From Terriglobia bacterium (GTDB taxonomy: Bacteria > Acidobacteriota > Terriglobia > JAIQFV01): 64,000 nucleotides of DNA. Below the pieces are notes generated by a model. That model made no database searches. It was not told where the DNA came from and saw only the letters and a program-made list of their open reading frames with translations. The DNA lies in assembly GCA_020072965.1 (NCBI GenBank), contig JAIQFY010000011.1, forward strand, positions 14,925 through 78,924, written 5' to 3'. Of this stretch, positions 35,602-63,630 are shown piece by piece. Each line of letters opens with the position of its first letter. Positions within the stretch are counted from its first letter, which is position 1. A program made the position numbers and the translations under genes.

Positions 35602-35704
35602 AGCTGGAGTTCCCGCGAGGACGCTTTGCAGCCCCTCAGCATAAAATGAGGCTTGCAAACACTGAGAAAGAAACGAAATCATCCGCACTCCCTAGGAACC
35701 GATC

Positions 35705-38686: not shown

Positions 38687-38726
38687 GCGGAATCTCAGAT
38701 CGCTGCTCAAGAGGAGTTTTTTACTC

Positions 38727-39578: not shown

Positions 39579-39637
39579 AAGCCGTGCTGTTCGCCACGGA
39601 TTCGAATCAAAAATTCTTCTGAGTTCAGTAAAGAATA

Positions 39638-41094
39638 TGGCAAAGAAAATTGGCGCGAAGACAAAAACCCCGATGATGTGTCAGGATCCCCAGGTGCGGG
39701 CTCACAATTTCAATGAGGTGGCGCTGGGCTACAGGGAGGAAGAGGCGGTATTTGAGGCCAATCGGTGCATTGAGTGCAAGAACATGCCCTGCATCGCGGG
39801 TTGTCCGGTCGAAATTGATATCCCCTCCTTCGTCAAGGCGATCGCCGAACGACGGTTCGAAGACGCCACCCGCATCTTGAAGTCAAGGAACTCGCTGCCC
39901 GCCATCTGCGGACGTGTCTGCCCGCAGGAAGAGCAGTGCGAGCTGAAGTGCACCCTGGGTGCCCGTTTCGAGCCGGTCGCGATCGGCCGACTTGAGCGCT
40001 TCGTCGCCGACTGGGCGAGGGCTCACATGGCGGAAGAGATCCCGACTAAGCGACCTTCCAATGGAAAGAAGGTCGCTGTGGTGGGTTCAGGACCCGCCGG
40101 GCTGACCTTGGCGGGAGATTTGGTGCAACTGGGCTACCAGGTCACCATTTTCGAGGCGCTGCACAAGGCGGGAGGAGTTCTCGTTTACGGAATCCCGGAA
40201 TTTCGTCTTCCCAAGAACATCGTGCAACAGGAGATCGACTACCTCATCAAGATGGGCGTGGAGCTGAAGACCAGCGTCGTCATTGGAAAATCCCTGACGT
40301 TGACAGAGTTGATGACCGAATTAGGATTCGATGCCGTGTTCATTGGGACAGGTGCGGGCCTGCCTTCCTTCATGAAGATTCCGGGCATCAATTTGATTGG
40401 CGTGTACTCTGCCAATGAGTATCTCACGCGTTCCAATTTGATGAAAGCCTATCGATTCCCTGAATATGACACTCCCGTCATCCGGGGCCGCAATGTGGCA
40501 GTGGTGGGAGGTGGCAATACCGCGATGGACTCCATCCGGACCGCCTTGCGCCTGGGCGCAGAAAACGCCTATCTGGTGTATCGCCGCTCCCGGGCTGAAA
40601 TGCCTGCCCGCAAAGAGGAGGTGGAGCACGCGGAAGAGGAGGGCGTCCAATTCCACATGCTCACCAATCCGGTCGAGATCCTGGGCAATGAGAAGGTTCG
40701 CGTCCGGAGCATGCGGGTGCAGAAGATGGAGCTCGGCGATCCCGATGAATCCGGGCGCCGCAAGCCGATCCCCATCCCCGGCTCTGAATTCGAATTGAAC
40801 GTCGATACCGTCGTTATGGCGGTGGGCCAGGGGGCGAATCCCGTCCTCACTTCCACTGCGCCGGATTTGAAAACAAATAAGTGGGGAAACATCGTTGCCG
40901 ATCCCGAGACCGGGGCAACGAACATCCCCGGTGTGTTTGCGGGAGGAGACATCGTCAGTGGCGGCGCGACCGTCATTCTGGCGATGGGAGCGGGGCGGAA
41001 AGCGGCTCGGGCCATTGACCAATACCTCCGGGAACTGAACCTGAATGCTACGCCGCAGCCGCAGGAGGCGGAAGAAAGTACAGTTCCAAACTGA
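39638..41094 (+). CDS. nfnB: NfnB / GltD-like NADPH-dependent oxidoreductase (glutamate synthase small-chain family)
   Basis: CIECKNMPCIAGCP and CGRVCPQEEQC Fe-S motifs. VAVVGSGPAGL and VAVVGGGNTAMD are dinucleotide-binding motifs. Confidence 0.8.
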
Positions 41095-41262
41095 GGTACC
41101 CATATCGTGCGGTTGAGTTCGAAAGGCCGCGATCCAACGAGGCAGGAATACTTGAATGCAACCCACACATGAATTGGCCCGTCCTTATGAACCTGATCGC
41201 GGGGAACTCAGACGTGGACTGGACTCAGTGGGCATTCAGCGGAGCAGGGAGGCTGGAAGAAA

Positions 41263-41652
41263 ATGTCAGTGATTGTGAATCATCGCGAAAAATACTCCTT
41301 CGAGGCCCACACCCGGAATCATCTGATCCTGAGTGATCAGCCGACTTCCTCTGGAGGCGGAGACTCGGCCATGACTCCGAATGAGCTATTCGTCTCCTCC
41401 TTGGGATTGAGCATGGCAGTCTATATCCAGCACTTCTTCCGGGCACGGAACCTGCCCGGCGATCGCTTTTCGCTCCACCTCGATTGGGAGCAGGAAGAGA
41501 ATCCAACCCGGATTTCCAAGGTGAGTGCCTGCATTCACCTCCCCCCGGAAGTGCCCGAACGTTATCGAGAAGGCCTGCGTCACGCCGCGGAATCCTGTCC
41601 CCTCGAACATACCTTGCGGGCTGCGCTCAAGATTGAGGTCCAAATCGGATAG
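41263..41652 (+). CDS. OsmC-like family protein
   Basis: MTPNELFVSSLGLSMAVYI and a C-terminal Cys (AESCPLEHT). Second OsmC paralog in the locus. Confidence 0.6.
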   Translation: MSVIVNHREKYSFEAHTRNHLILSDQPTSSGGGDSAMTPNELFVSSLGLSMAVYIQHFFRARNLPGDRFSLHLDWEQEENPTRISKVSACIHLPPEVPERYREGLRHAAESCPLEHTLRAALKIEVQIG

Positions 41653-42010
41653 GGGAATTCAATGAACAGATACTCAAAGGAGGTGATCGATTGAAGCGGC
41701 CAACCGGGGTTATCATCCTCCGGGTTCGGCCCTCGAAAGTACTTTCTTTCGGATCAGATTCCGCATCTGTGAACCCGAAGGAAATTCAATTCAAGCCAGT
41801 CCTCATAACGTAGTTTCATTCAAATGCCTGGGGCTTGAGGCGGTTTTTCAACCATGGCGGGGTGAATGTCCAAGGGGAATTCATCCAAGAACGATCAGGC
41901 ATCAATGAGATGCTCGATGTTGATCATCGGAATCTATCAATCTGGTTCTTTCGTAATAGGATTTTCCAAAGTCAAACACGAACGGCAAACCTCTTCAGAA
42001 AGGAAACATC

Positions 42011-43285
42011 ATGACACCTACTATGACTCAAGGGTTAACTGAAACCTTGAATGCCTTCGAGATAGCTCAGAAGCAGTTCGCGGACGCGGCCGACATTTTA
42101 GGGCTGGACGAAGGAGTTCGCAAGAAACTCAGAACCCCCGAACGATGTCTCACCGTCGCCATCCCCACCCGGATGGACGACGGCCGGCTTGAGGTTTTCA
42201 TCGGGCATCGAGTACAACACAACACCACGCGCGGCCCCTCCAAGGGCGGCATCCGTTTTCATCCCAACGTCACCCTGGATGAAGTTAAAGCTCTGGCCAG
42301 CTGGATGACTTGGAAATGCGCGACGGTAGGAATCCCTTACGGCGGCGCCAAAGGCGGCATTACCTGCAACCCGAAGGAGATGTCCCAGGGTGAACTGGAA
42401 CGAATGACCCGCCGCTATGCCTCCGAGATTTCGCTCATTATCGGACCAGAGAAAGACATCCCCGCTCCGGATGTGTACACCAATGCCCAGACCATGGCCT
42501 GGATTATGGATACCTACTCCATGAACAAAGGCTATGCAGTGCCGGGCGTCGTTACCGGAAAGCCCCTCGCACTGGGTGGATCGCTCGGTCGGAATGAAGC
42601 CACAGCGCAGGGTTGCGTTTACATCATTGAAGAAGCTGCCAAGAAACTGGGAATCGATCTGAAGACCGCCACTGCCGTGATTCAAGGGTATGGGAACGCC
42701 GGATCCATCGCGGCCTATCTCCTCCATGACCTCGGAGTAAAAATCATTGCGGTCAGTGACTCCCGGGGAGGCATCTTGAACACCCAGGGATTCGATCCGA
42801 GAAAGGTGCTGGAGTTCAAAAATCAGACCGGCTCAGTGGTGGGTTTCCCGGGCACCGAATCGATCTCCAATGAAGAGATCCTCAATCTCAAGTGCGACGT
42901 CCTGGTCCCCGCTGCACTCGAAAACTGCATTACTCTGAAGAACGCTGTAAAGATCAATGCGAAAATCGTGGCCGAGGCGGCAAACGGGCCGACTACCCCG
43001 GGCGCCGACGAGATCCTCTTCGATCGCAAAATCGTTGTTCTTCCCGACATTCTCGCCAATGCGGGTGGAGTCACGGTCAGCTATTTCGAGTGGGTGCAAA
43101 ACGTTCAGGAATTGTACTGGGACATCGAGGACGTGAACTCCCGCTTGAAGAAGATCATGACCCGCAGCTTCAACGACGTCTATGCCATCCACAAGGACAA
43201 GAGGATCAACATGCGGAAGGCGGCGTACGTGCTTGCAGTCGGTCGCGTGGCAGAGGCCTTCAAGCTGCGTGGCCTGTTTCCATGA
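42011..43285 (+). CDS. gdhA: Glutamate dehydrogenase (NAD(P)+)
   Basis: KGGIRFHP, GGAKGG and the GYGNAGS dinucleotide fold. Length 424 aa. Confidence 0.9.
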   Translation: MTPTMTQGLTETLNAFEIAQKQFADAADILGLDEGVRKKLRTPERCLTVAIPTRMDDGRLEVFIGHRVQHNTTRGPSKGGIRFHPNVTLDEVKALASWMTWKCATVGIPYGGAKGGITCNPKEMSQGELERMTRRYASEISLIIGPEKDIPAPDVYTNAQTMAWIMDTYSMNKGYAVPGVVTGKPLALGGSLGRNEATAQGCVYIIEEAAKKLGIDLKTATAVIQGYGNAGSIAAYLLHDLGVKIIAVSDSRGGILNTQGFDPRKVLEFKNQTGSVVGFPGTESISNEEILNLKCDVLVPAALENCITLKNAVKINAKIVAEAANGPTTPGADEILFDRKIVVLPDILANAGGVTVSYFEWVQNVQELYWDIEDVNSRLKKIMTRSFNDVYAIHKDKRINMRKAAYVLAVGRVAEAFKLRGLFP

Positions 43286-45670: not shown

Positions 45671-45686
45671 TGGCACCCGGAATGCT
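45671..45686 (+). promoter_or_regulatory. Candidate sigma54 (-24/-12) promoter TGGCACCCGGAATGCT
   Basis: Strong -24 TGGCAC. GC of the -12 box lies 12 nt after GG. About 185 bp upstream of the decaheme cytochrome start. Confidence 0.45.
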
Positions 45687-45871: not shown

Positions 45872-46873
45872 ATGACCTCATTCACGGGCCCGCTGAAGGC
45901 GATCAAGATGACGCTCATCAGCGGCTTAGTGCTTGTGGGACTTGTGGGCGCCTTTTCCCTTTCCTTCTCGAAGTCGGCCAAGCCCGACAAGGGAAAGACT
46001 CCGCAAGCCACGTCGGCGAATTACAAGGCGGAGGACTATGTTGGGGCTGACACCTGCAAGACCTGCCACGAAGAGATTTACAACAATTTCCAAAAGACGG
46101 GCCACTTCAAACTGACGCGATATGGCAACTGGACGGCCGACAACAAAGGCTGCGAAGCCTGTCACGGACCGGGCAAGGCCCACGTGGATGGAGGCGGTGA
46201 TAAGACCAAGATTCATACGTTCGAGGATCAATCAGCCAAACAGATATCTGAAACGTGTCTCCGTTGCCATGCCGGAAAAGAGGAACACAACAATTTCCGA
46301 CGGGGTGAACACTGGCGGAACGATGTGAGCTGTATCAACTGTCATGCGCCCCATTCGCCAACGGCCACAGATCTTAAAATGTTGGTCCAGAAGGAACCGA
46401 TGCTCTGCATCTCCTGCCACAGCGAGATCAAAGCGCAGTTCAATATGCCTTTCCGTCACAAGGTGATGGAAAACACCACGAAGGGCAACGTGCTGGAAGG
46501 CACCATGAAGTGTACTGATTGCCATAATCCTCATGGCGGGTTTGAACAGAAGCAGGTGAGGCTGGCAACGGGAGGAGATGCCCCCTGCATGAAGTGTCAC
46601 GCCGACAAACAGGGACCCTTTGTATTCGAGCATGCGCCGTTGAGGGAGGAGGGTTGCACGATTTGCCATATCCCGCACGGGTCGAATAATCCAAAACTGC
46701 TGAAGCGCAATGAAGTCCGGATACTCTGCCTGGAATGCCACAGCAATGCGGGCACCGTGGGAGCGCCTGATACTCCGTCGTTCCATAACCAGGCAACAGC
46801 GCGATTCCAGAACTGCACGACCTGCCATGTCAAGATTCACGGCTCGAATCTCGATCGATTCTACTTCCGTTGA
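45872..46873 (+). CDS. Decaheme c-type cytochrome, MtrA/PioA/MtoA-like periplasmic conduit cytochrome
   Basis: 10 CXXCH motifs (CKTCH, CEACH, CLRCH, CINCH, CISCH, CTDCH, CMKCH, CTICH, CLECH, CTTCH). 333 aa. Signal/TM at N-terminus. RBS AAGGAG 7 nt upstream. Confidence 0.8.
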   Translation: MTSFTGPLKAIKMTLISGLVLVGLVGAFSLSFSKSAKPDKGKTPQATSANYKAEDYVGADTCKTCHEEIYNNFQKTGHFKLTRYGNWTADNKGCEACHGPGKAHVDGGGDKTKIHTFEDQSAKQISETCLRCHAGKEEHNNFRRGEHWRNDVSCINCHAPHSPTATDLKMLVQKEPMLCISCHSEIKAQFNMPFRHKVMENTTKGNVLEGTMKCTDCHNPHGGFEQKQVRLATGGDAPCMKCHADKQGPFVFEHAPLREEGCTICHIPHGSNNPKLLKRNEVRILCLECHSNAGTVGAPDTPSFHNQATARFQNCTTCHVKIHGSNLDRFYFR

Positions 46874-49234: not shown

Positions 49235-50194
49235 ATGGTAAAGAAGCTCATATTAGCATTTACGTTCTTACTTGTTCTTGCAAGCCTATCTTTGGCCGCC
49301 AATCCCACTCCGGCACCGCTCAATGTCCCGACCTACAACTATTCGGAGTCGAATGGCTGTCCGAGTTGTCACTTCTCGTCGGGAACGGCAGGCGATCACA
49401 TGATGGAAGCGGTCGGCATGAGTATCGACAAGGGCAACACTGCTTTCACGCTCTCTGGCAGTGGCTGGCGTGCATCCCGGCATGCTCAATCCAACCATGG
49501 GTCCACGCAAAATACCTTCTGTGCAAAATGCCACTCTCCTCTTCAAGCCACACCTCAAGCGACCTTTAACAATGGGTTCCTGGAGAACACGGCGTTGATC
49601 GCTGATGGCCAAATGGAAGGTGTCACCTGTGCGGGGTGCCATCCGCCCCACGCCACCGTTCCTCGCCTTGGGATTTACCATTTCGGTCAGGACAAGACCA
49701 AGGCATCATCGTACACATTGATTCAGGAAGATGAGCAGGACCTGCTTTGCCTCAACTGCCACGTCAACCGACACAACGAGACCAACACTGCCTTTAAGCG
49801 GATGTACGACGCCGGCGTGCAGTGCACGGATTGCCACATGGCTCGCTATGGATTGACCAACAATGGTCAGGGTACAGTCCAAAAGCGCTTCCATGATTTC
49901 AAGGTGGCAGAGAATCTACCGTATTCCTGCGGTGTCGACGGGGCGGTTTCTGGATTCCGGTGCCATCCCGGCTTCAGCACAGAAGCAACTCTCGCCTTCC
50001 TGCCCTTCCTGAAGGAGCAGCACAGCGATTGGTGGCCTCTGACTCAGAGTGCCGGCAAGAGAGGCAATGCGACGGCTACTAGGACCCTGGCAACACCGGC
50101 CGATTATATGGACCTCTGGAAAGAGATCCAGAACGGGACTACCCGGGTGCAGAGCGAAGCGAAACGAGTGGATCGAACTCAAGCTGCCCAGTAA
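49235..50194 (+). CDS. Secreted pentaheme c-type cytochrome
   Basis: Sec signal MVKKLILAFTFLLVLASLSLA. 5 CXXCH motifs (CPSCH, CAKCH, CAGCH, CLNCH, CTDCH). RBS AAAGGA. Confidence 0.8.
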   Translation: MVKKLILAFTFLLVLASLSLAANPTPAPLNVPTYNYSESNGCPSCHFSSGTAGDHMMEAVGMSIDKGNTAFTLSGSGWRASRHAQSNHGSTQNTFCAKCHSPLQATPQATFNNGFLENTALIADGQMEGVTCAGCHPPHATVPRLGIYHFGQDKTKASSYTLIQEDEQDLLCLNCHVNRHNETNTAFKRMYDAGVQCTDCHMARYGLTNNGQGTVQKRFHDFKVAENLPYSCGVDGAVSGFRCHPGFSTEATLAFLPFLKEQHSDWWPLTQSAGKRGNATATRTLATPADYMDLWKEIQNGTTRVQSEAKRVDRTQAAQ

Positions 50195-50372: not shown

Positions 50373-51161
50373 ATGGACTCATCAAATAGAAGACGTTTTG
50401 TTAAGAACGTGGGTGGAATCGCGATCGGTGCAGTCGCTGGGTCCGGGGTTACCCGGCTCCTTTCTTCGGACGAAGCGCCACTTGCGATTCCGGCTTTGCC
50501 TTGGCCTTATGTGGATTTGGATCCGATTGCAGTAGCCGAGAGAGCGTACCTGGGTTATTCCAACGGTGGGTGCATGTACGGGGCATTCGAGGGAATTATC
50601 GGGGAGTTACGTACCAAGCTGGGAGCACCATTCGATACCTTTCCTACCACCATGATGAAATACGGTGGCGGGGGGGTCGCCGGTTGGGGCAGTCTCTGTG
50701 GAGCGTTGAATGGCGTCGCGGCAGCCATTTATCTTTTGAAGGATTCAAAAACCGGAAATGATCTGATCAGTGAAATCTTTAACTGGTACGGAGTAGAAAA
50801 GCTCCCAAATTACCGACCAAAAACCCCGAAGTTTGAAATTGCAACCACTATTTCGGAGTCCCAGTTGTGTCATGTGTCTGTCACCAAGTGGGCTAATCAC
50901 ACGGGTTTCAAAACGGGCTCTCCCGAGCGCGCTGAAAGATGTGCGTGGCTCACTGCTTCTGTCGCCAAGTACACCACAGAATTGCTGAACAAGCAGCTCG
51001 CCGGGACTTACCAGCGGGCGCACCAAACCCCCGCGAAGGTTACTCTGTGTTTGCAGTGCCATGGACCCAGCGGCACGGTAGCCAATGTCCATATTACCGG
51101 GGGTCAAAGTAACTGCACCTCGTGTCATCATCGACACTGGGCTGGAGGAGTCGAGTTCTGA
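50373..51161 (+). CDS. C_GCAxxG_C_C family redox protein with C-terminal diheme c domain (split-Soret cytochrome-like), Tat signal
   Basis: SNRRRFVKNVG twin-arginine leader. Cys pattern C...CGALNG...C...C. CLQCH and CTSCH at the C-terminus. RBS AGGAGG. Confidence 0.65.
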   Translation: MDSSNRRRFVKNVGGIAIGAVAGSGVTRLLSSDEAPLAIPALPWPYVDLDPIAVAERAYLGYSNGGCMYGAFEGIIGELRTKLGAPFDTFPTTMMKYGGGGVAGWGSLCGALNGVAAAIYLLKDSKTGNDLISEIFNWYGVEKLPNYRPKTPKFEIATTISESQLCHVSVTKWANHTGFKTGSPERAERCAWLTASVAKYTTELLNKQLAGTYQRAHQTPAKVTLCLQCHGPSGTVANVHITGGQSNCTSCHHRHWAGGVEF

Positions 51162-52228: not shown

Positions 52229-53887
52229 TTGTCCCAGGGCATGATTGAATTCTCTATGAAATCAAACGGAAAGACACGGATGTCCAACGAAAGTTCGTGG
52301 ATTGAAGGAACAACAACTCAAGCTCCCCAGAAACTCAGTCCTACTGCCGAAAGAGGCGAGGAAAAAGCCGGGCCCGCAAATGGAGGATTTCTTGATGCTT
52401 CCATCCGTTTTCTGAGCACCGTTCGCCTGGGACTCTACCTGTTGATTATCCTCGTTGTCATCTCGTTTATTGGAACGATCATCCCCCAAAAACCGAACAC
52501 CTCTCCTGAAAACCTGCAAAGAATGTTTGCCCCCGCCAACCTCGTGCTGCTGGACCGGATTGGCATCCTCGATATTTTTCACGCCTGGTGGTTCAAGGCG
52601 TTACTGACGCTGCTCGGCCTGAACATCGTCTTCGCATCACTGGACCGCTTCTCACACGCATGGAGATACATCAGGCGCCCGGCGCGATGGCTCACCGAAA
52701 CGGTAATTCGAGCCCAGCACCAGCATGCCGAAATCCACTTCCAGACTTCCCTCGAGGAAACCGAGCGAGCGGTCAAAGGGCGGTTGAGGAAGTGCCTGGG
52801 GCATCCTGAGGAGACCGAAAGGGAGGGACGGAAGGTCATCTTTGCGCAACGGCATGTTTATTCGCGCCTGGCCGCCTATGCAATTCATCTCAGCCTCCTG
52901 GTCATCTTCGCCGGGGGATTGATCGGATTGGAATTGGGCTACAAGGCGCGGGTATCTTTGAGGGAAGGAGAATCCACTTCAAAGGTCATCCTTTTCGATA
53001 CCACGCGGAGTGTCGTGGAGGCCGCAGGGGAACCGAGGTTCCTTGAGAAGGAAATTCCCTTCACGCTTCAACTGGACAAGGCCGAAGTCGTTTTTAACAA
53101 CCCCAAAGACTCCAGCCTTCTCCACCGCGATGACATCCAGAGTCCCGGTGTGGTGAAGAACTGGTACTGCACGATGTCTGTTTGGGAAAATGGGGTCAAG
53201 CAAAGCACCCAGGTGGTGGCGGTGAACCAACCGCTTTCGCACCGGGGATTCCGGTTCTTTCAAAGTGGTTTTGATTTCGGGAACGGACTGAAGGAATTTA
53301 CATTTCAGGTTCGTTTGAAGGGGGCGGGCGGACAATCCTCTGAAGCCGTTTACAAGGTTCGAAAGGGGGACTCCTTCGAGATCAAAGACGCCCACCTGGT
53401 CGCCACGCCGGTGCGGTCGGGAATCATGCCGCAAGCCGATCTGCCCTTTGTATTTCTCAGCCTCCAAAGCAGCGATGGGAAGCCCCCTCTCCAGCTGCCG
53501 GTCTTCGACGAGCCCACGACCCAAAAAATGCGCCAGGGGGCGAACGATGCATCGCCGCTTCCTAAACCTCCTGATGGGATGGAGATTTTTCTGATCGACG
53601 CCACCCCGGAGTTCTCGACGACCCTTCAGGTCTCGCGTGATCCCGGAGTTAACACGGTGTGGGCGGGATGCATTCTCCTGATGTTGGGATTGATGGTGGC
53701 CTTTTACTTTTCGCATCAACGGGTGTGGGCCCTGTTGATTCCCGTTGAGGACGGCACGACGGTCGTCCTTGGCGGTGATTCCAGCAAGAACCGATCTGCT
53801 TTCGCAAGAAAATTTCAGCATCTTGTCGACTTGATGGGGCCACAGGAAGAAGCCTCCCCCGTGAGGCAGGATTTCAAGGAGAAGTAA
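52229..53887 (+). CDS. resB: Cytochrome c biogenesis protein ResB/CcsB (system II)
   Basis: N-terminal TM after FLDASIRFLSTVRLGLYLLIIL. Large periplasmic domain. C-terminal TM. Immediately followed by ccsA. Confidence 0.85.
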   Translation: MSQGMIEFSMKSNGKTRMSNESSWIEGTTTQAPQKLSPTAERGEEKAGPANGGFLDASIRFLSTVRLGLYLLIILVVISFIGTIIPQKPNTSPENLQRMFAPANLVLLDRIGILDIFHAWWFKALLTLLGLNIVFASLDRFSHAWRYIRRPARWLTETVIRAQHQHAEIHFQTSLEETERAVKGRLRKCLGHPEETEREGRKVIFAQRHVYSRLAAYAIHLSLLVIFAGGLIGLELGYKARVSLREGESTSKVILFDTTRSVVEAAGEPRFLEKEIPFTLQLDKAEVVFNNPKDSSLLHRDDIQSPGVVKNWYCTMSVWENGVKQSTQVVAVNQPLSHRGFRFFQSGFDFGNGLKEFTFQVRLKGAGGQSSEAVYKVRKGDSFEIKDAHLVATPVRSGIMPQADLPFVFLSLQSSDGKPPLQLPVFDEPTTQKMRQGANDASPLPKPPDGMEIFLIDATPEFSTTLQVSRDPGVNTVWAGCILLMLGLMVAFYFSHQRVWALLIPVEDGTTVVLGGDSSKNRSAFARKFQHLVDLMGPQEEASPVRQDFKEK

Positions 53888-53890
53888 ATC

Positions 53891-55375
53891 ATGAGTCGTG
53901 TTCATACCGGACCATTGACCGAAGGTGACGGGGCAGCACAGAAGAAGATACTTTGGCCGATGCTCTCCAGTGTTCTTGGGATGGTGCTGCTGGCGTTATT
54001 TGTGATCCCGAACATTCTCAAGAGCGGGGCCGGATTGATGAGTCCGGGAGCCCTGCTCAGTCTGGCCATCATTTTTTACGTCGGCTCCTCGGCCTTGCTG
54101 ATCAGCTATCTGCTGCGGCGCGTGGAGCGTCTCCTCCAGGTGGCCAAAGGGTTGATACTGGTGGGCTTCATCTTTCACACCGGTGCCATCGTCGCCCACT
54201 GGATGGTCGCAGGACGTCCGCCCATTTCAAACATCTTTGAAATGCTGATCAGTTTTGCCTGGGCCCTCATTGCCCTGGATTATGTTTTCCAGCGAATCTA
54301 TAAGCTCAAGATCCTCAGTTCGTTCAGTGTCCCCATCGCCACCCTGGCAGTATTGCTTTCGACTATCCTGCCTGCGGACCCGGAGCGAACACTGCCCCCG
54401 GCACTCCAAAGTGTGTGGCTATACATCCATGTCACCTTTGCGATTTTCAGTTATGTCGCCTGTGCCATTGCGTTTGTGGCTTCAATCCTCTACCTCGTCA
54501 AAGACCGCGTGAAGCTCGAGACTTTCGGAATGATCACACAGGCCCTCACGGTCACGACCATCGCGGGGATTGACTGGCTGGGAAATGCGGACACGGCCCA
54601 CCGGCACTTCAACATCCTGCTGCGGGGTGAGTTCTTCCTCAGCCTCCTCTACAAAGGACGTGAGATTGCCATTCCAGGGATGGAAAAGACTTACCTGGTC
54701 GCGGGACTGCCCTTTGCCGGCAACGCCTTGCGGGTCTCCCTTCTGGTAGCCGTCATCGGACTGGTCCTGTACCTGGCAAAAGCCTCTTCGAAAACTCTGC
54801 TCCGGGTGACCCAGTTGGGATTTCTCGCACAGCTGGCATCAGTGGCCGTCATTCTGGCCGCGACACTCAGTAACTCGACGCAGCAGATGATCGACAGGAT
54901 TCCCGGACAAGTTCTGGGCCAGTTTGACGCGGCGGCCCTGGCGAAGGCGGCCACGGTCAGCATCAAATCCATTCCATTCATCTTTGCGGGACTCCTCGTG
55001 GCGCTGGTCACCACACTGTTATTTCTTATCTTGCACTCCCGGCATGAGGCCATTGTATCTTCGCTCCCCGATGGCAAGCTGCTGGACGAGGTCAATTACA
55101 AGGTCGTCACCATCGCGTTTCCATTACTCACCTTGATGATTGCCACGGGAGCCTTCTGGGCCAATCGCACCTGGGGTTCTTACTGGAACTGGGACCCCAA
55201 GGAAGTGGGGGCTCTGATTACCTGGCTGGTTTATGCAGCCTACCTGCATATGCGCATCGTTCGCGGCTGGGCCGGCCGGCGAGCCGCCTATTTCGCTATC
55301 ATCGGTTTTGTGTTTGTCCTCTTTACGTTCATTGGGATTAGTTATCTGCTCCCGGGCCTCCATGCGTACGCTTGA
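53891..55375 (+). CDS. ccsA: Cytochrome c-type biogenesis protein CcsA/ResC (system II heme lyase), long form (494 aa)
   Basis: Multi-[28 protein letters not shown] is the Trp-rich WWD heme-handling motif. Confidence 0.85.
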
Positions 55376-55594: not shown

Positions 55595-55830
55595 CCACTG
55601 CCATCTGAAATACAACAAGACATTGAATGACGTGGGCACGTGTTATGCAAAGAATCACAATCTCTCCGACTGCAAGGCGCCGGAGGCAAAGTAGGCGAAG
55701 GGCATTGGACTGTCGGGCTGCATTGGAAGGCAAGGGCTTGAACGCGATTCGCGCTGGATGGAGCCCGGCGCAACGTGTTCGGGCGGAAATGTTTTTGGGG
55801 AAGGAAATGATCTCCCTGGAGTGAGACAGG

Positions 55831-56718
55831 ATGGACGGGACCAGAGAAAAAAAAGTCGTTGCTCTGACCTCTCTGGTGGCTGCCGTTTTGCTCACCCTGT
55901 TCAAAGCCATCGTGGGAGTGGCGACTGGAAGCCTCGGAATTTTGTCTGAAGCGGCGCACTCCGGACTCGATTCTGCCGCAGCGCTGATGACCTATTTCGC
56001 GGTTTCGATTTCAGCCAAACCTGCCGACGACTCCCACCACTATGGACATGGAAAATTCGAAAGTTTCTCAGCGCTCTTTGAAGTGGTCCTGCTGCTGCTC
56101 ACCTGCTGCTGGATTATCTACAGGGCCGCCTATCGCCTGGCCGGCCACCGCGTGGAGGTGGAAGTCAATGTCTGGAGTTTCGCGGTGATGGGCATTGCCA
56201 TCGTGGTGGACATCACTCGCTCGCAGGCCCTGATGCGGGTGGCCCGGCGTTACGGAAGTCAAGCCCTGGAAGCCGATGCGTTACATTTTCAAAGTGATAT
56301 CTACAGCTCGCTCGTCGTCATCTTCGGACTCATTTTCACCAAGGCGGGCTTCCCGGTCGGCGATCCATTGGCCGCCCTGGGTGTTTCTATCCTCGTCATG
56401 ATCGCCTCTGTCAGGTTGGCGATGCGATCCAGCCAGGTGTTGTTGGATCGTGCCCCCTCGGGGGTCGAGGATCATATTCGCAAGATTCTCACTTCGTTGC
56501 CCCGGGTCCTGGAAGTTCGAAAAATACGGGTGCGCGATGCGGGAACGCAGATGTTTGTCGACGTCACGATTGCGGTCGATGGCCATATGTCACTGGACGA
56601 ATCACACGCGGTGGCAGATGAATCAGAACGCCAGATCGCCGCGGTGATCTCCAATGTGGATGTGACGATCCACGTCGAGCCGGCGACTCAGGCCTTGTTT
56701 CTGAATGAACGACCTTGA
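55831..56718 (+). CDS. Cation diffusion facilitator (CDF) family metal efflux transporter
   Basis: GSLGILSEAAHSGLDSAA, HYGHGKFE and a C-terminal cytoplasmic domain. Length 295 aa. Confidence 0.85.
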   Translation: MDGTREKKVVALTSLVAAVLLTLFKAIVGVATGSLGILSEAAHSGLDSAAALMTYFAVSISAKPADDSHHYGHGKFESFSALFEVVLLLLTCCWIIYRAAYRLAGHRVEVEVNVWSFAVMGIAIVVDITRSQALMRVARRYGSQALEADALHFQSDIYSSLVVIFGLIFTKAGFPVGDPLAALGVSILVMIASVRLAMRSSQVLLDRAPSGVEDHIRKILTSLPRVLEVRKIRVRDAGTQMFVDVTIAVDGHMSLDESHAVADESERQIAAVISNVDVTIHVEPATQALFLNERP

Positions 56719-56815: not shown

Positions 56816-58840
56816 ATGAAAATTCGTCCCTTACAATTACCGGGTCTGCGATCTGTCCGGTTCATCTTTCCTTTGTTTCTCTTTCTCTTAATGATCTCCT
56901 GTTCCGCGGCCTGGGGAGCAGTCAAGAGCTCTGAATGTCTGAGCTGCCACGCCATGGAGGGGTTCCAGTCTCCCGGTGGAATGAATCTGTATGTCGACCA
57001 AAAGCGATTTGAGAAGAGCGTCCACTCCTTCTTGAATTGCACGGATTGCCACTCTGACGTTTCAAAGACACCGCATGCTTCCCAATTGGCCAAAGTGAAC
57101 TGCGGTACCTGCCACGAGGAACAACAGAAAAAATTCGCGTTGTCGATTCATGCGGGAAAAGTGATTCACAATCCTTCCGACGGGGGAAACGGAAAGAAGG
57201 CGTTCACGTGCGCGGACTGCCATAGCCCTCATACGATTCTGCCGAAGAGCGATCCGGCCGCTGCCACCCATCACACCAACGTGCCCGCCCTTTGCGGCAC
57301 CTGCCATCAGAACCTGCAGTTTGTTATTGAATCGCCCATGGCAGAAACCTCCAAGCCTTTTTTCGCCTACCGGGAAAGCGTCCATGGAAAATCAGTGGCG
57401 GCGGGATCGGAGCGGGCCGCGGTCTGTTCCGACTGCCATAACGCTCACGACATCTTGCCGCCCAACAACCCGAAATCCACGATCTTCAAAACCAACACTC
57501 CCGAAACATGCAGAAGGTGCCACGAAAACATTTACGCCGAGTACAGCGATTCCGTGCATGGAAAAGCGGTGAAGCGGGGGCTTTTCAACGCCCCGGTCTG
57601 CGTGGACTGCCACGGAATCCATTCCATTAAGTCACACATTGATCCGAGGTCGAACGTGGCGGCCCAGGTCATTTCGCGATCCACATGTGGGCAGTGCCAT
57701 TCAGGAGAGAAACTCTCTGCCGAGTACGGCGTCCCCGAGAATCGAGTCTCCTCTTATTTTGCAAGCTATCACGGCCTGGAGAGCCGGGTGGGATCGGTTG
57801 AAACGGCCAATTGCGCCAGTTGTCACGGGGTGCATCACATCCTTCCGTCGGGCGACCCACGGTCCACGGTGAACAAAGCCAACCTCGCACAAACCTGCGG
57901 GCAGTGCCATCCCGGGGCCAGCGAAAATTTTGCCAAGGGTCGCATCCATCTGCTGAAAGGACAAGGGGATGCTATCGGCGGACGGATCATAACGGCTGTC
58001 ACCCAGTTTTACGTTTGGCTGATATTCCTGGTGGTGGGGGGAATGATTATTCACAACGCGATTGATTACTTCGCCCGGGCCCGCCTGCGATTGCGTGAGG
58101 ATTTGCTGCATGGGAAGGCCACCATCGAGCGAATTCACTTGAGCGGCCGTATCCAACACGGAATTATGTTGTCGAGCTTCATCCTGCTGGTCATAACCGG
58201 ATTTGCGCTGAAGTTTCCCGACGCTCAGTGGGTGCATGCCCTGTTCCTCGGAAATGCCGCTGTCCGCGGCGTGGTCCACCGCATCGCCGCTGTAATTTTC
58301 ATCGGCCTCGCCTTCTTCCATCTCTATTTCATCCTCTTCACGAAAAAGGGCCGGCAGGAATTGAAGGCCTGGCTTCCCCGGCTTCAGGATGTCCGGGACA
58401 TGCCCCTGATGATCAGCTATAACCTGGGACTTACAAATGAACACCCCCGATTCGATCGCTTCGGCTATGTGGAGAAGATGGAGTATTGGGCGCTGGTGTG
58501 GGGCACCCTCATCATGGTGGCCACCGGACTGGCGCTGTGGGCGAAAACCTTCGTCCTGTTTTACATCCCAAAATGGGGTCTGGATGTCTTTGAAGTGATT
58601 CACTACTACGAGGCCTGGCTTGCCACGCTTGCCATCATCGTTTGGCATCTCTATATGGTCCTGATGCGACCGGGTTCGTACTCGTCGAGCTGGATGTGGC
58701 TGACCGGAAAGATTACCCGCGAAGAAATGATTGAGGAGCATCCCCTGGAATGGGAACGGATGGAACGCGAATCAAGGTCAGCCGAGAATGCCGAAAAAGA
58801 GGAGGCACAAGAGATCCCTCAACCTGCCCGTTCGACATAA
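56816..58840 (+). CDS. CbcL-like fusion of an 11-heme c-type cytochrome and a dihaem cytochrome b (FdnI/HydC-like) membrane domain
   Basis: Signal/TM, then 11 CXXCH arranged in paired repeats. C-terminal 5-TM region with conserved His (HNAIDYF, HGIMLSS, HRIAAVIF, WHLYMVL). Confidence 0.75.
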   Translation: MKIRPLQLPGLRSVRFIFPLFLFLLMISCSAAWGAVKSSECLSCHAMEGFQSPGGMNLYVDQKRFEKSVHSFLNCTDCHSDVSKTPHASQLAKVNCGTCHEEQQKKFALSIHAGKVIHNPSDGGNGKKAFTCADCHSPHTILPKSDPAAATHHTNVPALCGTCHQNLQFVIESPMAETSKPFFAYRESVHGKSVAAGSERAAVCSDCHNAHDILPPNNPKSTIFKTNTPETCRRCHENIYAEYSDSVHGKAVKRGLFNAPVCVDCHGIHSIKSHIDPRSNVAAQVISRSTCGQCHSGEKLSAEYGVPENRVSSYFASYHGLESRVGSVETANCASCHGVHHILPSGDPRSTVNKANLAQTCGQCHPGASENFAKGRIHLLKGQGDAIGGRIITAVTQFYVWLIFLVVGGMIIHNAIDYFARARLRLREDLLHGKATIERIHLSGRIQHGIMLSSFILLVITGFALKFPDAQWVHALFLGNAAVRGVVHRIAAVIFIGLAFFHLYFILFTKKGRQELKAWLPRLQDVRDMPLMISYNLGLTNEHPRFDRFGYVEKMEYWALVWGTLIMVATGLALWAKTFVLFYIPKWGLDVFEVIHYYEAWLATLAIIVWHLYMVLMRPGSYSSSWMWLTGKITREEMIEEHPLEWERMERESRSAENAEKEEAQEIPQPARST

Positions 58841-58909: not shown

Positions 58910-60700
58910 ATGCAATCCCGGAAGCGACAACGACAAAGCATGCTGGTGCTGGTGATCTTTCTGCTCGCAGTCTTTCTCGTCGTGTCTTATCGATTCTACA
59001 AGGAAACCGAAATCAAGGTGGTGGCACAGTCCGGCGTTCAACAATGGTTGATTGCAGAAACGGCCGCGGCGGGAGTGGAAGGGTACTTTGACACCATTTA
59101 CAAGCGCCTGGAAAAGGAATCCACGACCCTCGCCGCCCGCCCTGCGAACCAGCCCATTGCAGACCATTCACTCGACGCACTCTATCTCGATTTGTCGTAC
59201 CGGATTGCAGGGGTCTACCTGCTGAACGACAAATTTCAGATCGAGGTCTTTCGATCCAACGATCCCCAACTACGTAGTTATCTGCCGCAGATCACGGGAC
59301 CCTTGATGACCGCCCTTCTGCGCGGAGAACATGTGGTAGGCTCTCCGGTCGCCATCAGTAACTATGAATACATCTTCGAGATCCTCGAACCGGTGCTCGA
59401 TTCGGGGGGGCACTTGAAGATGGCCCTCGGCGCCGCGGTTCCCCTCCGGAATTTGAGCTCTCTCTATCTCGACCCGTTGAATTCCACCAAGACCCATTAC
59501 GCGTGGATGCTGGATCAGAAAGGGATGCTTCTCTACAATCCACGTCACGCCGAGATGCTGGGACACCAGATTCTCCAAAACCGCCAGGAGTGTTTTTCCT
59601 GCCACCTTAATTTCGAGACGGAAGAACGTATGGTGCGCGGGGATACGGGGACGGCGACCATCGAATTCAGGAACAAGGACCGGGACCTGGTCGCCTTTAC
59701 ACCCATCCGCATGGGTAATCAGCATTGGTCGCTCGCCGTTTCGATCCCCTATACCGAGGCCACCGCACTCACCCGTGACAGTTTTCGCAACACTCTCCTC
59801 CTGGTGGCCTTCTTCTTCTCGATCATTATTGGCGGGGCGGTGCTGGTCATGAACATGCACGCCCGCAGCATCAAGGCCGAAGAGGAGGCGCGGTTCACAA
59901 GACGGCAGGCGCAACTCGAGCGTCAATTGCTGCAGTCAGAACAACTGGCGGGCATCGGCCGTATGACCTCGCAGATTGCCCATCAAATCAAGACGCCGCT
60001 CTCGGCCATCTCGTTGAACATTGAGTATCTCGAAAAAGAAGTCCGAAAGCGCCTCCTTTCCAGTGGCGTCCCGATGGGTGATGCTTCGCTGGAAGACATC
60101 GAGAATGTCACGGCTTCAGTCACCAGCGAGATTCAGCGTCTGGCCGCTTTGATCGAAGACTATTTGAAATTTGCGCGCCTTCCTAAACCCGTCTTTCATC
60201 CGGGTTCACTGACCGAAATGTTGGAAAGCCAGGCGGCGTTTTTGGAAAAGGAAATGGGAGACCGTCACATTCAGTTGAAGGTAGACGCTGCGCCTGCGGG
60301 AAGCGGTGAGGCCGGCGGCCCCGATAAGATTCTGATGGATGAAAACCTGATCTGGCAGGCCGTTACCAATCTCATCCGCAACTCGGCCGAGGCAATGCCC
60401 TCAGGCGGTACGATCACACTGCGCGTAAGATGCGCCGACAATGACGTCGAATTCAAAGTCTCGGACGAAGGGACCGGAATCCCCGAAGACAAGCTCCCCC
60501 ACATCTTTGAACCCTTCTTCACGACCAAGCCTGACGGAACCGGATTGGGACTCTCTTATGTCCACCGGGTCGTCACCGAACATCACGCTTTCATCGCCTG
60601 CCAGAGCCGCATGGGCGTGGGAACATCATTCACGATTAACTTTCCCCGGTGGACAGACCAATCCCTGGAAGATGGAGCCTATGTTGATGCTAAATCGTGA
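58910..60700 (+). CDS. Sensor histidine kinase with periplasmic sensor domain containing a CXXCH heme-binding motif
   Basis: Two TM helices flank an approx. 280-aa periplasmic domain containing CFSCH. H-box IAHQIKTPLSAIS. HATPase_c N/G boxes (IRNSAEAM, DEGTGIP, GLGLSY). Confidence 0.8.
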   Translation: MQSRKRQRQSMLVLVIFLLAVFLVVSYRFYKETEIKVVAQSGVQQWLIAETAAAGVEGYFDTIYKRLEKESTTLAARPANQPIADHSLDALYLDLSYRIAGVYLLNDKFQIEVFRSNDPQLRSYLPQITGPLMTALLRGEHVVGSPVAISNYEYIFEILEPVLDSGGHLKMALGAAVPLRNLSSLYLDPLNSTKTHYAWMLDQKGMLLYNPRHAEMLGHQILQNRQECFSCHLNFETEERMVRGDTGTATIEFRNKDRDLVAFTPIRMGNQHWSLAVSIPYTEATALTRDSFRNTLLLVAFFFSIIIGGAVLVMNMHARSIKAEEEARFTRRQAQLERQLLQSEQLAGIGRMTSQIAHQIKTPLSAISLNIEYLEKEVRKRLLSSGVPMGDASLEDIENVTASVTSEIQRLAALIEDYLKFARLPKPVFHPGSLTEMLESQAAFLEKEMGDRHIQLKVDAAPAGSGEAGGPDKILMDENLIWQAVTNLIRNSAEAMPSGGTITLRVRCADNDVEFKVSDEGTGIPEDKLPHIFEPFFTTKPDGTGLGLSYVHRVVTEHHAFIACQSRMGVGTSFTINFPRWTDQSLEDGAYVDAKS

Positions 60701-61799
60701 TTCAGATCCCCTGATTCGACAGCAGCGCCGGGGTCGAACCCGGAAATTGGCCCAGGGACGATCTCTCACAAGGCGGGCCCTGCGCCTTGTTTCCACGAGT
60801 CTCGTTTTTGGGACAGGTCTCCTCGCGGCCTTGCTGGGTTTTTCGGCAGTCAACGCAGGTTCCACATTCGGGTCGCCGGATTGTACCCTCTGCCATGCGA
60901 ATTCAAAAACCCCTGTTACCCAGGACATGCTCAAAGACTCTGTCCATGCACGGCTCACGTGTATTGATTGTCATACTGGAATCCTGAATGCTCCCCATGC
61001 CGAGAAGCCCCCAGCCGTAGACTGTGGATCCTGCCATGCCGCCGAATCAATGGGATGGCACAAGAGTCCGCACGCGGTGAGGCCGGGCGCTCCTACCTGT
61101 GTCGGTTGCCATGGAACTCATTCCATGCATGCAATTCGCCCCGGGAACAACTCTGTCATCAAGCTGCAGATTGCCCAGCTCTGCGAAAAATGTCACGACA
61201 AGCAATTTGCCAGCTACAAGACCAGCGTTCATGCCCGAGCCTTGGAAAGAGGAGATGGAGAGGCGGCCACCTGCACCGATTGCCATGGCGGGCATGCCAT
61301 CCAAGGTCCCGAATCCGCCGGTTCGCCGGTGGCTCCTGCTTCCGTTTCCAGCACCTGCGGCGCCTGTCACGCCGATAAGAAGACCATGTCGATGTCCGGG
61401 CTCCCTACAGACCGGGTGTCCACATTCCGTAGCAGTTTTCACGCTGCCGCGTTGAGAATGGGGAACATGAAAGCTGCCACCTGTGCCTCATGCCATGGCG
61501 CCCATGACATCCTAGCTTCCCCCGATCCCGCCTCGCGCACCAGTCCGGCCAATTTGCCGAAGACATGCAGTCGATGCCATGCCGGTGTGAAGCAGGGGTT
61601 TGCCGGTGTCAGGATCCATGTTGATGTCAGCCCGACTGGGGCGAGAGCCGCCTGGTTTGTCCGAATCTTTTACATTGCATTCATCAGCATCCTGGTGCTG
61701 GGTTTCATCATTCACATTCTCGCCGAGCGCTTGGGGGCACTGAGAAAGAGAAGGATTGCGCACCGCGATGCTTCTTCGGAAAAGGGGGGTGTCCAATGA
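60681..61799 (+). CDS. Nonaheme c-type cytochrome with C-terminal membrane anchor
   Basis: 9 CXXCH. C-terminal TM helix WFVRIFYIAFISILVLGFIIHIL. Overlaps the histidine kinase stop by 20 nt. Confidence 0.8.
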   Translation: MLMLNRDSDPLIRQQRRGRTRKLAQGRSLTRRALRLVSTSLVFGTGLLAALLGFSAVNAGSTFGSPDCTLCHANSKTPVTQDMLKDSVHARLTCIDCHTGILNAPHAEKPPAVDCGSCHAAESMGWHKSPHAVRPGAPTCVGCHGTHSMHAIRPGNNSVIKLQIAQLCEKCHDKQFASYKTSVHARALERGDGEAATCTDCHGGHAIQGPESAGSPVAPASVSSTCGACHADKKTMSMSGLPTDRVSTFRSSFHAAALRMGNMKAATCASCHGAHDILASPDPASRTSPANLPKTCSRCHAGVKQGFAGVRIHVDVSPTGARAAWFVRIFYIAFISILVLGFIIHILAERLGALRKRRIAHRDASSEKGGVQ

Positions 61800-62524
61800 A
61801 TACCGCAGGTGGCCCCGAACAAGTAGACCGCAGGCCCTCGCGACAACCCGGCGCCACAATCAGCCGCCTCACATTATGGCAAAGGTGGGAGCACGGCCTG
61901 ATGGCACTTTCTGTCACGCTGCTCATCCTATCGGGTGTTGCTCTGACATACCATGAGCAAGCTTGGGCCCGATTCTTGATCTGGCTTATGGGCGGGTTGC
62001 AGGGCCGTCACTGGGTTCATCGAACCGCCGCCATAGGCCTCCTGGTCGCTGGTCTGCTGCATTTACTCGGCTTGATGCTATCTGAGCGGCATAAACGTGA
62101 TTTTCGTGAGGTCAAGCCAAGACCAAACGATTTCCGTGCCGCTTGGTCGGGGTTGAAATTTGCCTTTTCCGGAAAGGGGGAACCGCCCCATTACGGTTGG
62201 TTTACTCCCATGCAAAAGCTTCAATACTGGGGGGTGCTGATTGGATGTTTGTTGATGGGAGTCTCAGGGGTGCTTCTGTGGAACCCCGTCTTCACGCTGA
62301 ATTCCTTCCCCAAGTGGGTTCTGGACACCATGCTGGTCCTCCACGCCACGGAGGCCCAGTTCATCTTTGTGCTATTCATCCTCTGGCATCTATATGACGT
62401 CCACGTCGCGGAAGGAAATTTTCCGATGAACCCCGCCTGGCTTACAGGAAGGATGTCGGAGGAGCACTTCGCCCGGCAGCACCGTGCCTCCTGGGAAAAC
62501 GGTCGCTCCAAGGAGGAGGCATGA
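61796..62524 (+). CDS. Cytochrome b subunit (FdnI/HydC/PhsC-like dihaem b)
   Basis: 4-5 TM helices with conserved His (WEHGLMA, HRTAAIGLL, WHLYDVH). Start overlaps the upstream stop (ATGA). Confidence 0.75.
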   Translation: MNTAGGPEQVDRRPSRQPGATISRLTLWQRWEHGLMALSVTLLILSGVALTYHEQAWARFLIWLMGGLQGRHWVHRTAAIGLLVAGLLHLLGLMLSERHKRDFREVKPRPNDFRAAWSGLKFAFSGKGEPPHYGWFTPMQKLQYWGVLIGCLLMGVSGVLLWNPVFTLNSFPKWVLDTMLVLHATEAQFIFVLFILWHLYDVHVAEGNFPMNPAWLTGRMSEEHFARQHRASWENGRSKEEA

Positions 62525-63630
62525 CGCGCTCGCTCTTCAAGCCGCTTGCCCTCGAAGCCGCATTTGTCCTTCTCGGGATGACCTGGCTTGTAACCCCCCT
62601 CCCGGTCCGCGCTCAAGAAGACATTCGATGCCTTACTTGTCATGGCAAGCCCGGTTTCGAAAAAACGCTTCCCTCTGGCAAGAAGCTCGAATTATTTGTA
62701 GATCCGATGCGTTTGCGTCTCTCCGTCCACAAGGATCGGAAGTGCGTCGACTGCCATGCCGATGTGACCGAAGTCCCGCATCCCGAGATCCCCCAGAAAG
62801 TGAACTGTGGACGATGCCACTTCCTGGGTAACTCAGTAGGAGCCCCTCAGCTGCAAAGATACATCGAGTATGGGACGAGCGTTCATGGGAAAGCGCTGGC
62901 CGAAGGAAATCCCAAGGCTCCTGTTTGTCAGGATTGTCATGGAGACCATTTCATTCTTCCCGGCTCCGATGCCCGTTCTCAGGTGAACCACAAGAGCATT
63001 CCTCAGACCTGCGGGGGTTGTCATCTGGAAATCTACGCCCAGTACCAGGAATCAGTGCACGGACAGGCCCTGATCAAGGGAGTCAAAGATGCGCCGGTGT
63101 GCACCAACTGTCATGGAGAGCACAATATCCTCAAACCCCAGGACAAGACCTCCACCGTGAATCCCGGAACAGTAGTGAACACATGCTCCAAATGCCATTC
63201 CAAGGTCGTCATCATGGAGAAGTACGGGGTCAAGGCGGAGCAGGTGGCCACCTACCGGGAATCCTTCCATGGGATTGCCAACGAATTCGGGATGCTCAAG
63301 GCGGCCAACTGTGCCTCCTGTCATACCGCTCATCAGATTTTCCCGGAGCAGGACCCCCGTTCGACGGTCAATTCAAGAAACATCCCGCTCACCTGCGGAA
63401 AATGTCACCCCGGGGCCAATGCCAACTTTGCCCAGGGGCGAATTCATCTCAACCCCAAGGACAAATCGGCGGGAATCGTTTACTGGGTAGCATTGGGCTT
63501 CAAGGTCTTGACTCTATCAACACTCGCTGGTCTCCTGATCCATATCGCCCTCGACCTCTATCGCCGGTTCAAGAACCGGAAGCAGCCGGGTGAGAAGAAG
63601 GAAGTTGAAGTCGCGGAGAAGTCGCAATGA
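62521..63630 (+). CDS. Nonaheme c-type cytochrome with C-terminal membrane anchor (paralog of 60681-61799)
   Basis: Signal peptide, 9 CXXCH and a C-terminal TM helix. Same paired-CXXCH module organisation. Confidence 0.8.
   Translation: MTRSLFKPLALEAAFVLLGMTWLVTPLPVRAQEDIRCLTCHGKPGFEKTLPSGKKLELFVDPMRLRLSVHKDRKCVDCHADVTEVPHPEIPQKVNCGRCHFLGNSVGAPQLQRYIEYGTSVHGKALAEGNPKAPVCQDCHGDHFILPGSDARSQVNHKSIPQTCGGCHLEIYAQYQESVHGQALIKGVKDAPVCTNCHGEHNILKPQDKTSTVNPGTVVNTCSKCHSKVVIMEKYGVKAEQVATYRESFHGIANEFGMLKAANCASCHTAHQIFPEQDPRSTVNSRNIPLTCGKCHPGANANFAQGRIHLNPKDKSAGIVYWVALGFKVLTLSTLAGLLIHIALDLYRRFKNRKQPGEKKEVEVAEKSQ

Follow-up and report, generated by a model that had tools for sequence, protein, structure and literature searches.

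A fused eleven-haem c/dihaem b cytochrome of a Terriglobia bacterium as a candidate menaquinol oxidase of the CbcL/MtrH/MtoC family

Acidobacteriota dominate many soils and peats. A 2026 preprint described conserved and transcribed Mtr-like porin-cytochrome clusters in Terriglobia, with transcription in peat, and its text never uses CbcL, inner membrane or cytochrome b. How electrons could pass from the menaquinone pool to such a conduit is the question raised by the locus described here, which lies in a stretch of 64,000 nucleotides (the window) from a Terriglobia bacterium (assembly GCA_020072965.1, contig JAIQFY010000011.1, positions 14,925 to 78,924). One of its genes encodes a membrane protein in which a multihaem cytochrome c domain is fused to a dihaem cytochrome b domain, hereafter called the fusion. 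With a probability of roughly 65%, we consider it to be an inner-membrane quinol:cytochrome c oxidoreductase of the CbcL/MtrH/MtoC type, with a mechanism derived from FdnI of Escherichia coli and from the argument made for CbcL. Most likely, it would act as a menaquinol:cytochrome c oxidoreductase feeding extracellular electron transfer.

The initial annotation had described a single polypeptide of 674 residues, and this was borne out by an open reading frame (ORF) of 674 codons that runs uninterrupted from the ATG at 56816 to the stop codon at 58838-58840. The product is 100% identical to MBZ5535951.1 from a Terriglobia metagenome-assembled genome (Acidobacteriota, of soil type), which NCBI names 'cytochrome b/b6 domain-containing protein', and four independently assembled contigs carry the identical gene. 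The start at 56816 was favoured, as it is the choice of NCBI, is directly followed by the signal peptide and is shared with the 78%-identical relatives. An in-frame ATG at 56705 (711 residues) was rejected, since the signal peptide would be buried and the CDF gene upstream would be overlapped. With split c and b versions of the same module encoded 2-5 kb downstream, one might suspect that an assembly or frameshift artefact had joined separate c-subunit and b-subunit genes. Such an event is next to impossible, however, given the unbroken ORF, the recurrence of the sequence on the four contigs, and the fact that all 120 homologues listed, which come from independent assemblies and reach down to 39% identity, carry both domains on one polypeptide, as does the CbcL clade in the same order. 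A frame error, named beforehand as a possible objection, is excluded, and because both domains are homologous to those of CbcL orthologues, the gene represents one ancient fusion.

Exactly 11 CXXCH motifs were counted, at residues 41, 75, 96, 132, 160, 204, 232, 262, 291, 333 and 361, and 22 of the 23 cysteines lie within them. Hydropathy revealed an N-terminal signal or anchor and five later helices (residues 390-420, 446-468, 483-507, 553-575 and 590-616), in line with the predicted signal, the eleven motifs and the five-helix C-terminal region of the initial annotation. The lysine and arginine counts obey the positive-inside rule with the c domain outside, and the C-terminal tail is hydrophilic and cytoplasmic. 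An AlphaFold2 model with a mean predicted local distance difference test score (pLDDT) of 78 agreed with this layout, so hydropathy, charge distribution and model all returned the periplasmic c domain that had been proposed for checking. A lipoprotein reading of C29 was discarded, as this cysteine is not conserved in the 11-haem family.

Within the c domain, three N-terminal haem motifs are followed by four di-haem repeats of the form CxxCHxxH...CxxCH...H. All 11 CXXCH motifs are invariant in 60 aligned homologues, and so are 11 further histidines (residues 70, 87, 112, 139, 190, 211, 248, 269, 319, 340 and 378); no invariant methionine was found in the periplasmic domain across the same alignment. 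These counts are consistent with bis-His ligation of the c haems, as measured for the CbcL domain (PMC9129911). The linker helix that follows is the counterpart of the C-terminal anchor in the split c subunits described below.

For the b domain, the proposed Pfam search matched Ni_hydr_CYTB (PF01292) on residues 445-617 with an E-value of 3e-15, above the gathering score. In the alignment to 1kqf_C, H448, H488, H596 and H611 correspond to H18, H57, H155 and H169 of E. coli FdnI, and the quartet is invariant in the 60 homologues. The best match of the AlphaFold2 model in the PDB was also FdnI 1kqf_C (Foldseek; template modelling (TM) score of 0.80 on the target, E 3e-6), with the hydrogenase-1 (Hyd-1) cytochrome b in second place. 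The earlier assignment of an FdnI/HydC-type histidine quartet was confirmed by this alignment, and neither a missing quartet nor a non-membrane domain, the two outcomes that would have spoken against it, was observed, as the quartet aligned and the helices were predicted. Two more membrane histidines join the FdnI quartet to give six that are invariant: H413, located in the linker helix, and H502, on the second helix of the b domain. Sequences of the CbcL clade also have an invariant counterpart of H413 (H307 in Geomonas numbering), in agreement with the 'five candidate ligands' that Joshi et al. noted for CbcL. H502 lacks such invariance in CbcL, but both split paralogues retain it. JGI's label 'formate dehydrogenase gamma subunit' records domain resemblance only. 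Here, the FdnI equivalog TIGR01583 scored 57.6 bits against a cut-off of 115.85, NF007558 (formate dehydrogenase gamma) scored 41.4 bits against 339, and no formate dehydrogenase genes are adjacent to the fusion.

A CbcL-like architecture had been suggested, and full-length collinear homology to CbcL orthologues supports it. In BLASTP comparisons with the orthologues of Geomonas propionica and Trichlorobacter thiogenes (615-616 residues, 9 CXXCH), the fusion showed 27-31% identity with E-values of 5e-63 and 7e-67, and both alignments ran collinearly from the c domain over the linker helix into the b domain. Both organisms are among those whose CbcL homologues share more than 65% pairwise identity (Antunes et al. 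2022, PMC9129911). They belong to 80 genomic loci of the CbcL clade that were fetched with a truncated CbcL-like fragment (P0137) and that did not include G. sulfurreducens. Nearly every full-length protein of this set carries 9 CXXCH, across Desulfuromonadales, Ignavibacteria, Bacteroidota, Chlorobiota and Myxococcota. With hhalign, a profile of 60 family sequences matched a profile of 24 CbcL-clade sequences with a probability of 100%, an E-value of 3.7e-94 and 31% identity over 520 columns. The sole large gap, at residues ~145-226, covers haems 5 and 6. As the fusion has four di-haem repeats and CbcL three, the two additional haems are due to one extra repeat. Since the profile match is collinear over the 520 columns, the alignments indicate that the c/b fusion is ancestral and common to the CbcL clade and the 11-haem subfamily.

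Nevertheless, the fusion is not a CbcL orthologue, because of the identity of about 30%, the extra di-haem repeat, the extra invariant histidine and the lack of a sixth helix. The family has five helices after the c domain, in contrast to six in CbcL including a C-terminal one; a hydrophobic segment in the last 70 residues was found in 2 of 134 family members and in 23 of 24 CbcL-clade sequences. It shares with the CbcL/MtrH/MtoC superfamily the fused architecture, the FdnI/HydC-type b domain with its histidines and homology over the full length. It therefore belongs to this broad family as a variant that fails three defining features of CbcL sensu stricto, which are nine haems, six helices and high identity to G. 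sulfurreducens GSU0274 (about 30% was found to the two orthologues; identity to GSU0274 within the Geobacter/Desulfuromonas cluster is 57.6-100%). NCBIfam holds no CbcL model, and neither CbcL nor the fusion reaches any curated cut-off there. A sequence search of the PDB returned no solved structure of either protein; the matches were only FdnI and 28pb_A, a 278-residue 'cytochrome c' that partially matches the first haems.

The initial annotation had set the eleven haems of this gene beside the nine of Geobacter CbcL. The count was correct, and the number is no peculiarity of this gene but the norm in the subfamily: among 135 relatives fetched, 123 carry 11 haem motifs, three carry 13 and three carry 19. 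The counts fit 3+2n, and the relatives with 10 motifs are N-terminally truncated. With more than 7,800 clusters at 90% identity scored and more than 570 metagenome stretches found, the sequences describe a very large and uniform 11-haem, five-helix subfamily dominated by Acidobacteriota. Zhong and Shi (2018) had already listed 138 CbcL/MtrH/MtoC homologues from 15 phyla, two of them in Acidobacteria, with 3-23 CX2CH motifs, 4-6 helices and identities of 28.6-100% (PMC6295460). Their table includes 11-motif proteins in Omnitrophica and probably Verrucomicrobia, and a 19-motif protein in Solibacteraceae (PMC6295460). The kind of protein is thus known and its variable haem number catalogued. In the literature searched, we did not find described the size and uniformity of the 11-haem five-helix subfamily, the 3+2n rule, the extra invariant histidine, the tandem of fused and split modules or the frequent operon with an ImcH-like gene.

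The analysis shows that a cleaved or anchoring signal places the 350-residue domain with its 11 haem c sites in the periplasm, that one helix brings the chain back to the cytoplasm, and that the four-helix FdnI-type bundle comes next, with the four histidines that bind two stacked b haems across the membrane. For this layout, the following mechanism is proposed on the basis of FdnI and CbcL. Menaquinol would be oxidised near the cytoplasmic-side b haem, as if FdnI were operating in reverse, and the electrons would travel over the two b haems across the membrane and out along the 11-haem chain. Multihaem cytochromes of the periplasm or outer membrane would accept them, at this locus probably those of the same-strand MtrA/MtrB-like conduit encoded 8 kb upstream, and Fe(III), humic matter or other extracellular acceptors would be reached through it. 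Each of the 11 haems probably has bis-His ligation and hence a low potential. As protons would be released on the cytoplasmic side, little or no energy would be conserved, and quinol oxidation by weak acceptors would be made feasible, which is the argument put forward for CbcL. The two extra haems would lengthen the wire without adding a new function.

The conduit proposed as acceptor consists of an MtrA/DmsE-family decahaem cytochrome beside an MtrB-like barrel and in this respect agrees with the Mtr type, in which such a decahaem protein adjoins a 26-strand barrel; instead of an MtrC-type decahaem protein it has a secreted 5-haem cytochrome (Table 1). The barrel protein gave no match in Pfam, NCBIfam or a profile search of PDB sequences; its predicted structure (pLDDT 85, all-beta) found MtrB 6r2q_B of the Shewanella Mtr complex as the best PDB match (E 9e-13, TM scores of 0.62/0.64). 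More than 1,000 homologues of this protein were found; Acidobacteriota supply most of them, and none has a name. The decahaem-barrel-pentahaem triad recurs on a Blastocatellia contig (L085:4263-8618), at 51-59% identity and beside a 47%-identical family member.

Table 1. Position of the fusion gene, its domains and the surrounding cytochrome-related genes. Positions refer to the window, or to contig L001 where indicated.
Feature	Position	Strand	Remarks
Fused 11-haem c/dihaem b membrane cytochrome gene	56816..58840	+	674 aa; identical to MBZ5535951.1
N-terminal signal peptide or anchor, residues 1-35	56816..56920	+	MKIRPLQLPGLR, hydrophobic core, then AAWG/A; model helix 13-28
Periplasmic multihaem c domain, residues 36-385	56921..57970	+	11 CXXCH
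Linker transmembrane helix, residues 386-426	57971..58093	+	Periplasm to cytoplasm; invariant H413
FdnI/HydC-type four-helix cytochrome b domain, residues 439-620	58130..58675	+	Ligands H448, H488, H596, H611; H502 extra
MtrA/DmsE-family decahaem cytochrome	45872..46873	+	TIGR03508, 252.5 bits vs cut-off 192.2
MtrB-like outer-membrane beta-barrel, 669 aa	46923..48932	+	Annotated hypothetical; by structure prediction
Secreted 5-haem cytochrome, completing the conduit triad	49235..50194	+	Conserved in Blastocatellia contig
ResB and CcsA, system II cytochrome c maturation	52280..55375	+	
CDF (cation efflux) transporter, directly upstream	55831..56718	+	PF01545, E 5e-42
Sensor histidine kinase with periplasmic dCache domain, one CXXCH	58940..60700	+	
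c9A, 9-haem cytochrome with C-terminal transmembrane anchor	60687..61799	+	Split paralogue of c domain, 38% identity
bA, stand-alone FdnI-type cytochrome b, 242 aa	61796..62524	+	Paralogue of b domain, 32% identity
c9B, second 9-haem cytochrome with C-terminal anchor	62521..63630	+	40% identity to c domain
bB, partner of c9B, beyond window end	L001:16923-17972		Seen in identical contig L001
Membrane-anchored 16-CXXCH cytochrome, 679 aa, beyond window end	L001:17969-20008		N-terminal NrfH/NapC-like anchor

To judge how general this setting is, 80 metagenome loci (L089-L168) with family members at 43-48% identity were sampled. An ImcH-like gene lies directly downstream on the same strand in 39 of the 55 loci having enough downstream sequence. 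It encodes a protein of ~505 residues with three N-terminal helices, one CX3CH and six CXXCH, and further ImcH-like genes were seen at L083:12223-13758, L084:12074-13585 and L088:11985-13508. Just upstream of the family member, a small monohaem cytochrome c is encoded in 35 of the 80 loci. CRP/FNR-type regulators are frequent neighbours, and Rieske/cytochrome b complexes occur near some members. These surroundings could also suit a general quinol dehydrogenase in the manner of NapC/NrfH/CymA, which would supply soluble periplasmic reductases or other respiratory complexes with no obligatory extracellular link. The monohaem cytochromes and the Rieske/cytochrome b complexes would fit such a role, as would the 69 of 80 loci without an MtrA-like gene nearby. 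We regard it as unlikely, since no gene for a periplasmic terminal reductase (Nrf, Nap, Tor, Dms, Psr) lies beside any member examined, and the nearest redox partners in the window are all multihaem cytochromes and the Mtr-like module.

Several points weigh against a menaquinol oxidase feeding an extracellular chain. An MtrA-like gene is nearby in 11 of the 80 distant loci and a barrel gene in 6, which shows that the family is not generally linked to an outer-membrane conduit. The putative function is assigned to the subfamily by homology and analogy, the quinone site was placed by analogy with FdnI, and for the comparison with CbcL the two named orthologues stood in for GSU0274. Furthermore, the inter-domain geometry of the AlphaFold2 model is uncertain (predicted TM score of 0.54, with low pLDDT in the linker segments). 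Finally, judged by sequence, electrons might flow either way, and homologues are known from Fe(III)-reducing as well as Fe(II)-oxidising organisms (PMC6295460).

This last point leads to the reverse direction, in which the fusion would serve as an MtoC-like quinone reductase and pass electrons from the Mtr-like conduit, supplied by Fe(II), reduced humics or a partner cell, to menaquinone. FdnI, the structural template, naturally moves electrons inward to quinone, and the neighbouring decahaem cytochrome matches the MtrA/DmsE family (TIGR03508). Decahaem cytochromes of this family include those of the MtoA/PioA oxidisers, and quinone reduction is the role proposed for MtoC in Fe(II) oxidisers. 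On the other hand, distant family members usually adjoin ImcH-like genes, and to date ImcH homologues are known from Fe(III) reducers alone (PMC6295460). The CRP/FNR-type regulators flanking many members and the 2-oxoacid:ferredoxin oxidoreductase and Nfn-like genes in the window fit anaerobic heterotrophy, and the window showed neither Cyc2 nor genes for carbon fixation. An inward flow thus appears improbable, and outward transfer from menaquinol is retained as the preferred reading.

With regards to the genes immediately around the fusion, the initial annotation had pointed to a CDF transporter and a haem-sensing kinase. Both are present, with the CDF gene (PF01545) upstream and the dCache kinase with its CXXCH downstream; as informative context, they are surpassed by the Mtr-like conduit, the system II maturation genes and the split paralogues. 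The CDF gene is kept beside the fusion in the 78%-identical relative, and CDF, kinase and ResB are adjacent to the family member in none of the 80 distant loci. Between conduit and maturation genes, a C_GCAxxG_C_C 'putative redox-active protein' (50373-51161, +) unites two C-terminal CXXCH motifs with the twin-arginine signal RRRFVK, which is unusual because haem c is normally attached after Sec export. Matches to the sigma-54 consensus numbered 61 in the window against 63 expected, which gives them no statistical support; the -24/-12 sites TGGCACCCGGAATGC (45671-45685, +) upstream of the mtrA-like gene and GGGCACGTGTTATGC (55634-55648, +) upstream of the CDF gene are only suggestive. Sigma-70 and terminator scans near the fusion gene were uninformative. 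Upstream of the cytochrome island, positions 34648-43285 (+) encode a 2-oxoacid:ferredoxin oxidoreductase, an NfnAB/SudAB-like pair and a glutamate dehydrogenase, and these metabolic genes are consistent with an anaerobic or facultative lifestyle. A 1085-residue ORF at 16632-19889 (-) had no Pfam match at an E-value of 1e-5.

Downstream, the CXXCH motif of the kinase reads CFSCH, and CLSCH in a 75%-identical orthologue. From its sequence, the kinase is likely a haem-c redox sensor paired with the sigma-54 response regulator at the far end of the cluster, which follows the 16-haem cytochrome beyond the window end (L001). The two c9/b pairs in between are paralogues of the fusion (38-40% identity for the c parts, 32-36% for the b parts, and about 30% each to the CbcL domains), so the island comprises three CbcL-type modules, one fused and two split. 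Both c9A and c9B end in an anchor helix with a conserved histidine, as in the linker helix of the fusion, and the start of bA overlaps the stop of c9A by 4 nucleotides. The public gene call for bA (207 residues, start 61901) loses the haem-ligand histidine of helix I, which is retained with the start at 61796. A 78%-identical relative (L086) shows the order ResB-CcsA-CDF-fusion-kinase-b-c9-b-16-haem-regulator, without c9A. In the Blastocatellia locus, an 18-haem analogue of the 16-haem cytochrome was found (L085:15006-16790).

Beyond the proposed quinol oxidation, these observations allow a further and rather speculative idea, which we consider doubtful as a whole. In this view, members of the Acidobacteriota subfamily may carry a haem wire of tunable length on an altered FdnI-type base. 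The haem counts of 11, 13 and 19, which follow 3+2n, suggest di-haem extension towards partners at different distances, perhaps even up to the outer-membrane conduit with no need of soluble carriers. H413 and H502, which both lie in the membrane half facing the cytoplasm, could be the ligands of a third b haem, or the pair could provide an alternative ligand that depends on redox state and gates the oxidation of quinol. As the usual operon partner is ImcH-like, soil Acidobacteriota might co-express the 'high-' and 'low-potential' quinol oxidases known from the Geobacter model, or even combine them in one complex.

The fusion gene leaves our knowledge of this kind of enzyme itself unchanged. 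Its family is the obvious candidate for the missing step between menaquinone pool and conduit in Acidobacteriota. The locus is unusually complete, with the conduit, haem maturation, one fused and two split modules and a two-component/sigma-54 pair on one strand, and it offers a concrete target for heterologous tests and for the reading of soil metatranscriptomes.

Among the known systems, CbcL (G. sulfurreducens GSU0274 and Desulfuromonadales orthologues) follows the same order of signal, multihaem c domain, linker helix with histidine and FdnI-type b domain, and the bis-His-like pattern of haem c ligation is common to both. CbcL is needed to respire acceptors below about -0.1 V and is turned off at high potential. 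The fusion differs by 11 instead of 9 haems, 5 instead of 6 helices, the extra H502, the identity of 27-31% and its Acidobacteriota host. Moreover, family members often lie directly upstream of an ImcH-like gene, whereas imcH in Geobacter is monocistronic and unlinked to cbcL. MtrH and MtoC (Rhodoferax ferrireducens, Dechloromonas aromatica, Gallionella ES-2) are likewise c/b fusions in a cluster with an MtrA-like decahaem cytochrome and an MtrB-like barrel, being encoded in the mtrAB/mtoAB clusters of Betaproteobacteria (PMC6295460). With 9 haem motifs, 6 helices and ~650-675 residues, they were set against the fusion by means of the published table only.

The split pairs follow the same logic as CbcBA of G. 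sulfurreducens, which was compared by description only and consists of a separate b subunit and a 7-haem c subunit with a C-terminal anchor. In both systems, an anchor helix with a conserved histidine and a separate dihaem b are accompanied by a sigma-54 response regulator in the cluster. BccR (sigma-54) controls cbcBA, and CbcB is reported to share no sequence homology with CbcL (Joshi et al.). The sigma-54 regulator and the putative haem-c kinase found here are reminiscent of this control, while the c9/b pairs have 9 haems instead of 7 and are clear paralogues of the CbcL-like fusion. Finally, FdnI of E. coli (PDB 1KQF chain C) has the same four-helix dihaem b fold (TM score as above) with the histidine quartet at the same positions, and its partner FdnH contributes a transmembrane helix that runs from periplasm to cytoplasm ahead of the b domain, like the linker helix of the fusion. 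In the fusion, the periplasmic partner is a multihaem cytochrome c in cis instead of a Mo/FeS enzyme, and the electrons are proposed to flow outward.

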